64,000 nucleotides of DNA from Escherichia coli (GTDB lineage Bacteria; Pseudomonadota; Gammaproteobacteria; Enterobacterales; Enterobacteriaceae), in NCBI RefSeq assembly GCF_044324875.1, contig NZ_CP172185.1. One strand, written 5' to 3'. Positions 36,524-40,089 of this stretch are shown piece by piece. The notes under the pieces are model-generated. The model made no database searches. It had not been told where the DNA came from and saw nothing but the letters and a program-made list of their open reading frames with translations. The position numbers and the translations under genes were made by a program. Position 1 is the stretch's first letter. Every line of letters starts with the position of its first letter.

Positions 36524-37450
36524 ATGACTGAACAACAAATTAGCCGAACTCAGGCGTGGCTGGAAAGTTTACGACCTAAAACCCTCCCCCTCGCCTTTGC
36601 TGCAATTATCGTCGGGACGGCGCTGGCATGGTGGCAAGGTCACTTCGATCCGCTGGTCGCCCTGCTGGCACTGATTACCGCCGGGCTATTACAGATCCTT
36701 TCTAACCTCGCCAATGATTACGGCGATGCGGTAAAAGGCAGCGATAAACCTGACCGTATCGGACCGCTACGCGGCATGCAAAAAGGGGTCATTACCCAGC
36801 AAGAGATGAAACGGGCGCTCATTATTACCGTCGTGCTCATCTGTCTCTCCGGGCTGGCACTGGTTGCAGTGGCGTGCCATACGCTGGCCGATTTTGTCGG
36901 CTTCCTGATTCTTGGCGGGTTGTCGATCATTGCCGCTATCACCTACACCGTGGGCAATCGTCCTTATGGTTATATCGGTCTGGGTGATATTTCCGTACTG
37001 GTTTTCTTTGGCTGGTTAAGCGTCATGGGGAGCTGGTATTTACAGGCTCATACATTGATTCCGGCACTGATCCTTCCAGCGACCGCATGCGGCCTGCTGG
37101 CAACGGCAGTACTGAACATTAATAACCTGCGTGATATCAATAGCGACCGCGAAAATGGCAAAAACACGCTGGTGGTGCGCTTAGGTGAAGTGAACGCGCG
37201 TCGTTATCATGCCTGCCTGCTGATGGGCTCTCTGGTGTGCCTGGCGCTGTTTAATCTCTTTTCGCTGCATAGCCTGTGGGGCTGGCTGTTCCTGCTGGCG
37301 GCACCATTACTGGTGAAGCAAGCCCGTTATGTGATGCGGGAAATGGACCCGGTGGCGATGCGACCGATGCTGGAACGCACTGTCAAGGGAGCGTTACTGA
37401 CTAACCTGCTGTTTGTTTTAGGGATATTCCTAAGCCAGTGGGCAGCATAA
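36524..37450 (+). CDS. menA: 1,4-dihydroxy-2-naphthoate octaprenyltransferase
   Basis: ATG 36524 gives 308 aa MTEQQISRTQAWLESLRPKTLPLAFAAIIVGTALAWW...; UbiA-family motif NDYGD. Confidence 0.93.
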   Translation: MTEQQISRTQAWLESLRPKTLPLAFAAIIVGTALAWWQGHFDPLVALLALITAGLLQILSNLANDYGDAVKGSDKPDRIGPLRGMQKGVITQQEMKRALIITVVLICLSGLALVAVACHTLADFVGFLILGGLSIIAAITYTVGNRPYGYIGLGDISVLVFFGWLSVMGSWYLQAHTLIPALILPATACGLLATAVLNINNLRDINSDRENGKNTLVVRLGEVNARRYHACLLMGSLVCLALFNLFSLHSLWGWLFLLAAPLLVKQARYVMREMDPVAMRPMLERTVKGALLTNLLFVLGIFLSQWAA

Positions 37451-37542
37451 CTGACAAATATCAATTAACAATTGATGATTTTGCCAACAGCCTACATAGC
37501 GCGATATACTGAAAATTCTCGCAGCAACTGAATGTTAAGCCT

Positions 37543-38028
37543 ATGAAATACGATACTTCCGAGCTTTGTGACATCTATCAAGAAGATGTTAACGTCGTGG
37601 AACCGCTGTTCTCCAACTTTGGCGGACGGGCGTCGTTTGGCGGACAAATAATCACGGTAAAATGTTTCGAGGACAACGGGTTGCTGTACGATCTGCTCGA
37701 ACAGAATGGCCGTGGTCGTGTTCTTGTCGTCGATGGCGGTGGTTCTGTTCGTCGCGCACTGGTCGATGCTGAACTGGCGCGTCTGGCAGTACAAAATGAA
37801 TGGGAAGGTCTGGTCATTTACGGCGCGGTGCGTCAGGTAGATGACCTGGAAGAGTTGGATATCGGCATCCAGGCAATGGCGGCAATTCCGGTTGGTGCCG
37901 CTGGCGAAGGCATTGGCGAAAGTGATGTCCGCGTCAACTTTGGCGGTGTCACTTTCTTCTCTGGCGACCATCTCTATGCCGACAATACCGGGATTATTCT
38001 TTCTGAAGATCCGTTGGATATTGAATAA
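37543..38028 (+). CDS. rraA: Regulator of RNase E activity A (RraA/MenG)
   Basis: 161-aa [49 protein letters not shown]... Confidence 0.95.
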
Positions 38029-38045
38029 GTATCTGCCATGCGTTA

Positions 38046-38071
38046 AAAGGGGAATTAACTTCCCCTTTTTT
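38046..38071 (+). terminator. Intrinsic terminator after rraA
   Basis: Hairpin aaggggaa-ttaac-ttcccctt followed by tttttt (38066-38071). Confidence 0.8.
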
Positions 38072-38075
38072 ATAC

Positions 38076-38762
38076 ATGGACGTATTCGTGCAGAATATTA
38101 TTCTTTTATTTATATATTTATTACTTATAGCCGTTAACCATTTCCGCTACAAATTTCTTTTATCTGGCAACGCGGGTGAAATGATTTTATATTTTGCTAA
38201 CGTATTTTTTAACCCACTTGCCGTATCATTTATTATCGCCACAATCATCTGTATAACGATAAAAAAAAGAAGCAGCCGTAGCTTTATTCGCGGCACTTGT
38301 TGGTTAATGGGATTATTTCTTATCTATAGCAGCTATACGGTGTGGGAACGACACAGCATATGGGATTATACTTTCCCGGGGCCAGGTATCACCGTCACGG
38401 TTCCGAGCAAACAGTGGGTTGCCAATATAGTAAAACAAGGACCAACCCTGGTGACTCGGGATGCCCATGCTATTTTAGCTATTGTTGCCTTCTCACAAAA
38501 TGAACTCGGTGTGCATTCAATCGAGGAACTTACCGCGACTCAAAACGGAACTGCAGAAATGCATGTTTGTGATGTTCAGGGATTTGCCTGCGCTTATCAG
38601 GAAGGAGTGCAAACAATGAGTGATGGCAAAGTAAGACATGCTATTTTCATGACTCTACTGGATAACACTAATTTGATACAACTGGTCGCAGCCATCGACC
38701 CAGATTATTTGGACGAATATCAAGAAGAAGTAATGAAAATGATGCTTTCTGCCCGTCCATGA
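38076..38762 (+). CDS. Hypothetical membrane protein, paralogue A (3 predicted N-terminal TM helices + ~140-aa C-terminal domain)
   Basis: 228-aa ORF; hydrophobic segments ~6-22, 36-60, 72-88; paralogous to the next ORF (LLSGNAGEM/LLSGDPGMV, FIRGTCWLMGLFLI/FTRGCCWVLGVLLL, ITVTVPSKQW/ISVTVPNRHW, MKMMLSARP/MEIMLSAKN); no obvious SD before ATG 38076. Confidence 0.75.
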   Translation: MDVFVQNIILLFIYLLLIAVNHFRYKFLLSGNAGEMILYFANVFFNPLAVSFIIATIICITIKKRSSRSFIRGTCWLMGLFLIYSSYTVWERHSIWDYTFPGPGITVTVPSKQWVANIVKQGPTLVTRDAHAILAIVAFSQNELGVHSIEELTATQNGTAEMHVCDVQGFACAYQEGVQTMSDGKVRHAIFMTLLDNTNLIQLVAAIDPDYLDEYQEEVMKMMLSARP

Positions 38763-38794
38763 TCTGATGTGCATATTAATAATAAGGGATTGAT

Positions 38795-39511
38795 ATGAGA
38801 TACGTTATCTTATTAATACTATGGATAATAACTGCTTTTCTTAGTCATCTTCAGCACAGTAACCTACTGTCTGGAGATCCTGGCATGGTTGGCGAGTATA
38901 TCGGTTCAGTATTTCTGGGGCCGTTATTACTTCCCGTGCTTGTGTCAGGTATTCTGTGCGCATTCACTAAAAAAACGCGTAACTTCGCCAGTTTTACTCG
39001 CGGGTGCTGCTGGGTATTGGGAGTCCTGCTTTTATCCAACGTCGGCAATACGTTTCGTCTGTTCACCCCGTGGCACTATACGTTTGAGAAGGCAGCTATT
39101 TCCGTGACTGTCCCAAACCGACACTGGAATACGGTTTCTATTAGTACTGATAAAACCATTGATATAAGAAGTGAAGATAATAGCGTCTTTATTTCTGCTT
39201 TCCGCCTGCCCGCAGGACGTAGCGCCGATGACTCGCTGGAAGAGTTAAAGAAGATGCAGCGAGACAATCTCAAGGATCAATACAATGAAGAAACCTTCCA
39301 GTTTCATGATTGTAATGCCAAACATTTCACCTGTAAGTATCAGGATGTGTTGATAAATTTTGATGGTCAGCAGAAAAGAACCATCAGTGTTTATCTTGAA
39401 GACACCCCCAGGGCTGTGGGGATCATTGCATTAATGGAGCCAGATACGGCAGATAAATATCGCCAACAGGCGATGGAGATTATGTTGTCTGCTAAAAATA
39501 CAGTGAAGTAA
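38795..39511 (+). CDS. Hypothetical membrane protein, paralogue B
   Basis: 238-aa ORF; RBS taaggga (38783-38789) 6 nt before ATG; same architecture as paralogue A; conserved Cys pair (HDCNAKHFTCKYQ vs HVCDVQGFACAYQ). Confidence 0.8.
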   Translation: MRYVILLILWIITAFLSHLQHSNLLSGDPGMVGEYIGSVFLGPLLLPVLVSGILCAFTKKTRNFASFTRGCCWVLGVLLLSNVGNTFRLFTPWHYTFEKAAISVTVPNRHWNTVSISTDKTIDIRSEDNSVFISAFRLPAGRSADDSLEELKKMQRDNLKDQYNEETFQFHDCNAKHFTCKYQDVLINFDGQQKRTISVYLEDTPRAVGIIALMEPDTADKYRQQAMEIMLSAKNTVK

Positions 39512-39536
39512 AAAATAAGGCGCCTTGCGGCGCCTC
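39510..39536 (-). terminator. Intrinsic terminator of zapB (abuts stop codon of paralogue B)
   Basis: Plus strand aaaaaat + aaggcgcc-ttgc-ggcgcct (39517-39535); on minus strand this is a hairpin followed by a U-run. Confidence 0.7.
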
Positions 39537-39549
39537 TGCGTGGAAGAGA

Positions 39550-39843
<294 letters not shown>

Positions 39844-40089
39844 TTACCGGTGACGCCTTAATAAATACGAGCGCACTTTAGTTAGCTCCGATTGTATGAA
39901 GCCGCGCCATCGCTGTCCAGCGGCACGCCTTGCAGATTACGGTTTGCCACACTTTTCATCCTTCTCCTGGTGACATAATCCACATCAATCGAAAATGTTA
40001 ATAAATTTGTTGCGCGAATGATCTAACAAACATGCATCATGTACAATCAGATGGAATAAATGGCGCGATAACGCTCATTTTATGACGAA

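Follow-up and report, generated by a model that had tools for sequence, protein, structure and literature searches.

The junction between rraA and a strain-variable pair of membrane-protein genes in Escherichia coli: the probable start codon of the first gene and its likely route of transcription

The window, as the whole stretch of DNA analysed here will be called, comprises 64,000 nucleotides (nt) of the Escherichia coli contig NZ_CP172185.1 (assembly GCF_044324875.1). In it, the interval between rraA and zapB holds a two-gene island whose genes, the paralogues A and B, encode membrane proteins that have three helices and, in the periplasm, a PsbP/DcrB-like domain. The original prediction drew attention to the way in which A begins: an ATG at 38076 follows the hairpin and T-run of the rraA terminator by only 4 nt, seemingly with neither a Shine-Dalgarno (SD) sequence nor room for a promoter. 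The letters are as it described them, at the coordinates it gave, and the observation is real, but the puzzle that it poses largely dissolves, in that the start of the longest open reading frame (ORF) is probably wrong and a weak SD is present. Taken together, the evidence moderately favours a reading in which A starts at 38088, behind a decayed SD, and in which low-level read-through from rraA accounts for the transcription of A and B. The odd appearance of the junction would then be mostly an artefact of choosing the longest ORF. Among the alternatives that the prediction had itself listed, a true start elsewhere is the best supported, by the register of the paralogue, the N termini of the family, the more distant locus L011, and an AAGGA-type initiation region shared with other family genes.

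The start codon of paralogue A

The ATG at 38076-38078 is in frame with an ORF of 228 codons, and 12 nt downstream of it stands a second in-frame start, which in the window is a GTG at 38088 and which opens a coding sequence of 224 amino acids (aa) on the plus strand (38088-38762). At this position the alleles of O157, H9, ST69, CV261, E. albertii and MOD1, and likewise those of the loci L011 and L012, have ATG. The GTG thereby sets the window allele apart from the other aligned alleles, as does a C in place of A in the loop of the terminator hairpin at 38059.

Comparison of homologues and existing annotation both indicate that A most likely starts at 38088 and not at 38076. In an alignment of A with B (30% identity, E 3e-35), Met1 of B falls exactly on codon 5 of the longer form of A. 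Across a family alignment of 24 sequences, some of whose members are only 16-20% identical, the column at the 38088 position holds the initiator methionine without exception, the N-terminal pattern M-[RKHQ]-x-[IV]-[IL] starts at that column in all 24, and the four-residue extension MDVF that the upstream ATG would add occurs in none of the aligned members. Further, the enterobacterial locus L011 is more distant and shares the synteny (hslVU-menA-rraA, an A-like gene, a B-like gene, zapB), and its junction reads ttttttatacAAGGAtgtatttATG; the upstream triplet there is AAG, and therefore only the downstream ATG, with AAGGA 7 nt before it, can start the L011 gene. The position 38088 is the one used by the Prokaryotic Genome Annotation Pipeline (PGAP) and by metagenome gene callers (224 aa, in at least 1,000 contigs); when EDL933 was first annotated, the start was placed at 38076 (228 aa).

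The region in which translation of A would be initiated (38075-38087, plus strand) comprises the ATG at 38076-38078, a degenerate SD, ATGGA, and a 7-nt spacer, CGTATTC. The claim that A has no SD holds for 38076, whose upstream letters (ttttttatac) contain no purine-rich run, and fails for 38088, which is preceded at a spacing of 7 nt by GGA (38078-38080). The predicted SD duplex for 38088 consists of this GGA only (-4.0 kcal/mol), against a value of +2.2 kcal/mol for 38076. Opening the RNA from -20 to +15 would cost 12.6 kcal/mol at 38088 and 21.9 kcal/mol at 38076, the higher cost arising because the ribosome site of 38076 overlaps the terminator hairpin. Other genes of the family have an SD of the AAGGA(T) type 4-6 nt before their ATG (ATACAAGGAT, ATAAGGAT, AAGGAT or AAGGGA), and the initiation motifs of the L019 gene (cttATACAAGGATacttATG), the L020 gene (catATAAGGATatttATG), the second gene of L011 (tttAAGGATagccATG) and the B of the window (aatAAGGGAttgatATG) can be set beside that of A. 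The taaggga to which the original prediction had pointed in B is indeed present (38783-38789), 5 nt before the ATG at 38795, and its AAGGGA (38784-38789, plus strand) has a predicted duplex energy of -5.3 kcal/mol.

In light of this family motif, the ATACATGGACGTATTC that precedes 38088 most likely represents a decayed copy of the AAGGA(T) SD. A single A-to-T change, from AAGGA to ATGGA, would have both weakened the SD and created the in-frame ATG at 38076; this would be a case of longest-ORF mis-assignment in which the spurious ATG was apparently created by a point change inside the SD, and would for that reason stand one SD-spacing upstream of the real start. Having no SD of its own, and with a ribosome window that overlaps the 3' half of the hairpin, the ATG at 38076 would probably be little used or unused.

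That ATG 38076 is the start of A after all is improbable, and yet several observations weigh on its side and against 38088. The upstream ATG is kept in every Escherichia allele examined and in the loci L012 and L013 as well; the four extra codons never vary, so that their conservation is compatible with a start at 38076; the GTG at 38088 in the window is a weaker initiator, which could shift use towards the ATG; and the SD of 38088 extends over only 3 nt. Against these stand the AAG that L011 has in place of the ATG, the lack of the four-residue extension in any member of the family, the paralogue register that sets Met1 of B at 38088, and, for 38076, no SD pairing together with a -20 to +15 region that includes half of the hairpin and is correspondingly costly to open. 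We infer that the codon that ribosomes use is most likely the one at 38088.

The rraA terminator and the transcription of A and B

The coding sequence of rraA (37543-38028, plus strand, 161 aa) ends in a TAA stop at 38026-38028 and is followed on the same strand, at 38045-38071, by an intrinsic terminator. Its stem pairs GGGGAA (38049-38054) with TTCCCC (38060-38065) across a 5-nt loop, TTAAC, giving six base pairs of which four are G-C, and AAAA at 38045-38048 can pair with the first four residues of the T6 tract at 38066-38071. With this A4/U4 extension the hairpin has a predicted energy of -12.6 kcal/mol (z = -3.6), which 1 of 200 shuffles equalled. It is weaker than the different terminator found in cassette-less strains, both in the stem only (-7.8 against -11.0 kcal/mol) and in the extended form, which reaches -17.7 kcal/mol in those strains. 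The terminator is kept in L011, L012, L013 and L024, and this includes loci in which the A proteins share only 38-53% identity (L012 and L011). Orthologous stems read GGGGGA/TCCCCC and GGGGAAA/TTTCCCC; at stem position 5 an A-U pair has become G-C in L011 by compensatory change, L012 has an extra pair, and, in the few lineages available, 98.3% of the cells in the terminator helix are paired. The T6 tract is invariant in all lineages compared. A G+C-rich stem-loop, an uninterrupted U-tract and a structure conserved in orthologues are all present, and on this comparative evidence the hairpin and T6 are the conserved rraA terminator of the cassette-bearing lineages. The junction as a whole is more conserved than the A and B proteins.

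The lack of room for a promoter between this terminator and A is borne out whichever start is taken: one lies 4 nt past the T-run and the other 16 nt, and a promoter scan found no -35/-10 site between the T-run and either of them. Two candidates at this place were considered and rejected: TATACA at 38071-38076 as a -10 element, which is without the final T and has AAGGGG at the -35 place, and a leaderless mRNA from ATG 38076, for which there is no -10 element at -12 to -7. Upstream of rraA, a promoter-like site (TTGCCA-18-TATACT, 37481-37510, plus strand, 10 of 12 matches) has an implied transcription start site (TSS) at about 37517, which is 26 nt before the rraA ATG; by Cappable-seq the rraA TSS lies 26 nt upstream of the ATG in EDL933, and in K-12 the distance is 28 nt. 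The rraA promoter, PrraA, is described in PMC11288022, in a statement that cites earlier work, as the sole promoter of rraA, sigma-S-dependent and induced in stationary phase. In a growth-curve array study of the Sakai strain, the probes ECs4854 and ECs4855 for the two genes move together, from about -0.4 and -0.7 log2 in exponential phase to +0.55 and +0.72 at 7-7.5 h (PMC2241611). This stationary-phase rise of both genes, about 2-fold, agrees with a sigma-S-dependent rraA promoter.

Because there is no room for a promoter, because the terminator is modest, and because the stationary-phase rise matches PrraA, read-through from rraA, one of the routes that the original prediction had offered, is the most plausible and the simplest, and it is on these grounds that we infer that it happens: A and B would be transcribed at a low level from PrraA across the modest terminator. 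Two points weigh against it. The stationary-phase rise is common to many O-island genes (QT cluster 2; PMC2241611) and is not specific to read-through from rraA. An A-tract and a perfect U6 are features of fairly efficient terminators, and read-through may be small.

For a second proposed route, transcription from within the AT-rich 5' part of A, there is now a mapped start site, albeit one called in a single condition. Within A lies a promoter-like site (CTGGCA-18-TATATT, 38164-38193, plus strand, 9 of 12 matches), and G+C content across 38000-38300 is 32-33%. For the EDL933 gene EDL933_RS25985, Table S5 of PMC10469882 lists one Cappable-seq TSS 'downstream of the annotated start', at 5007791(-) of NZ_CP008957, and lists it under stat M9 only, one of eight conditions. 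Since RS25985 runs from 5007903 to 5007229, this TSS, which belongs to a related strain and not to that of the window, maps to 38200, an adenine inside A and 7 nt after the TATATT that would serve as -10 element (38188-38193). A transcript from 38200 would be without the A start; its first ATG would be Met78 of A, and the start of B lies 595 nt further on. The internal TSS is taken as a minor or spurious contributor, a weak intragenic promoter that may add transcripts encoding only B or a truncated A. The promoter scan overall was not enriched (8 sites against 5.0 +/- 2.6 in shuffles), and acquired DNA that is rich in A+T is known for spurious intragenic promoters.

In its stronger form, this alternative would have the cassette expressed mainly from the intragenic promoter, yielding B and perhaps A truncated to Met78, with full-length A essentially silent behind an efficient terminator. 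The promoter-like site that ends just before the EDL933 TSS equivalent, the low G+C content, and a terminator with both A-tract and U6 speak for such an arrangement, but we consider it unlikely: the TSS was called in only one of the eight conditions and lies far upstream of B, the A and B probes co-vary on arrays, and purifying selection acts on the entire length of A, the first and second transmembrane helices among it, so that full-length A must be made. Low-level read-through from PrraA thus remains the preferred route.

Other signals around the cassette may be recorded here. On the minus strand, A contains two antisense promoter-like sites, at 38184-38212 and 38365-38392, with the sequences GTGATA-16-TATAAT (10 of 12 matches) and TTAAAA-17-TAAAAT, and transcripts from these predicted sites would enter the rraA hairpin from its A-tract side. 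At the far end of the cassette, the stretch 39505-39545 holds a hairpin with its T-run on the minus strand only; it is the terminator hairpin of zapB (39517-39536, minus strand) and not a canonical terminator for the cassette, which has no canonical U-tract terminator on the plus strand. Cassette transcription would converge on zapB.

A putative outer helix at the junction

Comparative folding suggests a further element around the terminator. RNAalifold pairs GAAUA at 38023-38027 with UAUUC at 38083-38087, and CCAUG at 38036-38040 with CAUGG at 38075-38079. The result is a putative outer helix, P1, whose tentative 5' arm (38023-38040, plus strand) begins with the last rraA codon and the first two bases of the stop (GAAUA) and whose 3' arm coincides with the initiation region of A at 38075-38087. 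The 3' arm lies beyond the U-tract, which would confine P1 to read-through transcripts. In every lineage with an intact A, the extended fold is the predicted minimum-energy structure, with energies of -23.8 in the window (z -4.4), -32.5 in L011 (z -6.6) and -24.4 in L012 (z -5.3); in L011, UCCU pairs with the AAGGA SD. In the consensus, 94.7% of cells are paired, with three compensatory pairs; 7 of 500 shuffles were as good, and slid controls gave 29-66%. With the 5' flank alone shuffled, p was 0.001 in L011 and 0.019 in L012, 0.036 in E. albertii and 0.08 in the window, and 0.51 and 1.0 in the two A-less lineages. In the window, the A-to-G change at 38088 adds a C-G pair to the predicted helix.

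These results allow an addition to the reading of a 38088 start reached by read-through, although one that we hold to be doubtful: P1 would mask the initiation region of A, and the 5' arm would be opened by any ribosome that terminates at the end of rraA, with the effect of coupling translation of A to that of rraA. The prediction of the fold in all lineages with an intact A, the flank-shuffle support, which is strong in L011 and L012 and marginal in Escherichia (p 0.04-0.08), its absence from the A-less lineages, and the retention of P1 with its compensatory pairs in the RNAalifold consensus all argue for it. The value for the window itself, however, is only 0.08; the lineages that are independent number just three, and it was from their sequences that the structure had been derived; the covariation term, at -0.36, is small; and AT-rich hairpin flanks pair easily by chance, as the shuffled mean of -20 kcal/mol attests. 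The folding analysis thus suggests P1 as a lead and not as a finding. Rather less likely again is a gate with two keys, in which A would be made only from transcripts that have both read through the terminator and been translated to the end of rraA, the terminator being the tip of a conserved composite RNA element. A search of 37400-39900 against Rfam at a permissive threshold returned only chance-level matches, such as SraG at 23 bits against a gathering value of 50, on the minus strand.

Long-range mRNA structure that couples the translation of neighbouring genes is familiar from infC-rpmI-rplT (IF3-L35-L20) of E. coli. As in that operon, the downstream initiation region is here predicted to pair with the end of the upstream cistron, and upstream translation would unmask it. 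Unlike the structure in that operon, P1 would close around an intrinsic terminator and bridge a spacer of 60 nt, and what speaks for it is computational and, in the window itself, weak.

The cassette, its proteins and its place in the genome

PGAP and most gene callers start B at Met31 (38885, 208 aa), which removes the first transmembrane helix. The long form of 238 aa from the ATG at 38795 (38795-39511, plus strand) is probably the correct one: it has the AAGGGA SD, its alignment with A and with every member of the family begins at residue 1, and variation in its first 30 codons falls mostly on third positions. A first AlphaFold2 model, from a 10-sequence alignment, was poor (predicted local distance difference test score 64.7) and was replaced; the predicted fold fits the description of the PsbP/Mog1/DcrB-like group, in which helices flank an antiparallel sheet. 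Nothing significant emerged when A, B and two distant homologues were scanned against Pfam, NCBIfam, PADLOC and PHROGs, there was no Pfam match of the PsbP/Mog1/DcrB/DUF1795 type at E <= 1, and a profile search against PDB sequences likewise gave nothing significant, its best relevant hit being Tli4_C at E = 0.13. The sole sequence-level link to the PsbP/Mog1/DcrB family is the name that its source gave to one B homologue, and in lacking significant Pfam, NCBIfam, PADLOC or PDB sequence matches A and B differ from the PsbP-type families. Relatives are few: a profile search recovered only 32 among 1.84 billion representative proteins, and the family loci recovered adjoin rraA and/or zapB.

The PsbP/Mog1/DcrB/DUF1795-type fold group includes periplasmic immunity proteins of type VI secretion systems, namely TplEi, Tsi3 and Tli4_C. 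Unlike these, the domain in A and B is anchored by three N-terminal transmembrane helices and has no neighbouring effector or secretion gene, and membership in such an immunity system is unsupported, as no gene of either kind adjoins A or B. Nor does anything support the earlier suggestion that expression is deliberately weak on account of a toxic or membrane-damaging product; what is found is a pair of three-helix membrane proteins with a PsbP/DcrB-like domain, kept by purifying selection.

Judged by their substitution patterns, A and B are real genes under purifying selection, with ratios of non-synonymous to synonymous substitution rates against E. albertii of 0.21 for A and 0.10 for B. They contain two homologous poly-A tracts: an A8 tract in A (38261-38268, plus strand), in the KKR-loop codons after the second transmembrane helix, and an A7 tract in B (38969-38975), in the Lys-rich loop at the same place. 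Frameshifts in alleles from the databases (P0005 and P0022 for A, P0023 for B) fall at these tracts, which are slippage-prone and possibly also sites of on/off switching.

The opposite view, that the cassette is a decaying remnant in which A has lost its expression signals and is becoming a pseudogene, behind a junction without function, is very improbable. It would accommodate the frameshifted or truncated alleles of both genes in databases, the slippage-prone A8 and A7 tracts, the loss of A from L024 and its reduction to a 10-codon stub in L013, the absence of the cassette from 88% of complete E. coli genomes, and the fact that neither protein is among the entries listed in O157 proteome and translatome tables. 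It sits badly, however, with the low substitution ratios of both genes (0.1-0.25 against E. albertii), with ORFs that are intact in about 660 genomes and in other species, and with a junction whose conservation exceeds that of the proteins.

Of 5,426 complete E. coli genomes, 657-660 (about 12%) carry the cassette, in all of them on the chromosome and at this spot; its bearers include O157:H7, O145:H28 and one ST69 strain. E. albertii and Escherichia sp. MOD1 also carry it, and a protein-pattern scan covering one genome per species returned a single locus, in Escherichia sp. MOD1-EC7003. When metagenomes were scanned with a DNA pattern for further lineages of the junction, a single match came up, unrelated and due to chance. 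In cassette-less strains the spacer between rraA and zapB is another sequence of 84 nt, with the stronger terminator mentioned above. The two kinds of allele diverge exactly from the rraA stop to the zapB stop (38026-39552), with TAA in the cassette form and TGA in the cassette-less form at the rraA stop, and TTA and TCA, respectively, on the plus strand at the zapB stop. The flanks are 100% identical to the window in a cassette-less O158:H23 strain. The junction allele of the window (38028-38128) has no identical copy among the 660 cassette-bearing complete E. coli genomes, and its closest match among complete genomes is 98% identical, with two mismatches in 101 nt.

Across more distant enterobacterial lineages, the interval between rraA and zapB is a variable spot that holds different cargo beside members of the family: an IS200/IS605-type Y1 transposase in L011, a Lipoprotein_9 gene on the opposite strand in L020, and, in L012 and L024, a block of carboxylesterase, MFS and AraC genes that replaces the sequence on the zapB side. 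In two lineages A has been lost and the rraA terminator retained (L013, positions 344-424; L024, positions 310-385). What is left of A in L013 is ATGGACGTAGGTATG followed by eight codons and a stop, and no trace is left in L024; both have a single B-like gene with its own SD, about 100-250 nt further on. Within Escherichia, the A genes of O157 and E. albertii differ at 1 position up to nt 271 and at 56 positions in the 404 nt that follow, and 30 of the 486 nt of rraA differ between them. The block from the 3' end of rraA to about nt 271 of A (38026-38360) looks like the product of a recent exchange between E. coli O157 and E. albertii, or of unusual constraint.

The terminator T1 between rpsU and dnaG, in the rpsU-dnaG-rpoD operon of E. 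coli, is the classic example of an operon-internal leaky terminator before a poorly translated gene. The junction studied here resembles it in placing an intrinsic terminator directly before a gene that runs in the same direction, lacks its own promoter and has a weak ribosome-binding site, and in arrangements of this type the output of the downstream gene is a small fraction of that of the upstream one. It differs in that the genes of the cassette form a strain-variable island and are not core genes, and in that the probable start of A lies only 16 nt from the U-tract. Dependence on upstream transcription by way of a leaky terminator is thus a familiar arrangement, and it leaves current understanding unchallenged; the cassette itself is uncharacterised. 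Were P1 to prove true, the junction would be a neat case in which translational coupling has a terminator at its core, and, were the two-key arrangement true, the expression of a strain-variable island of membrane proteins would be tied to the RNase E regulator RraA.
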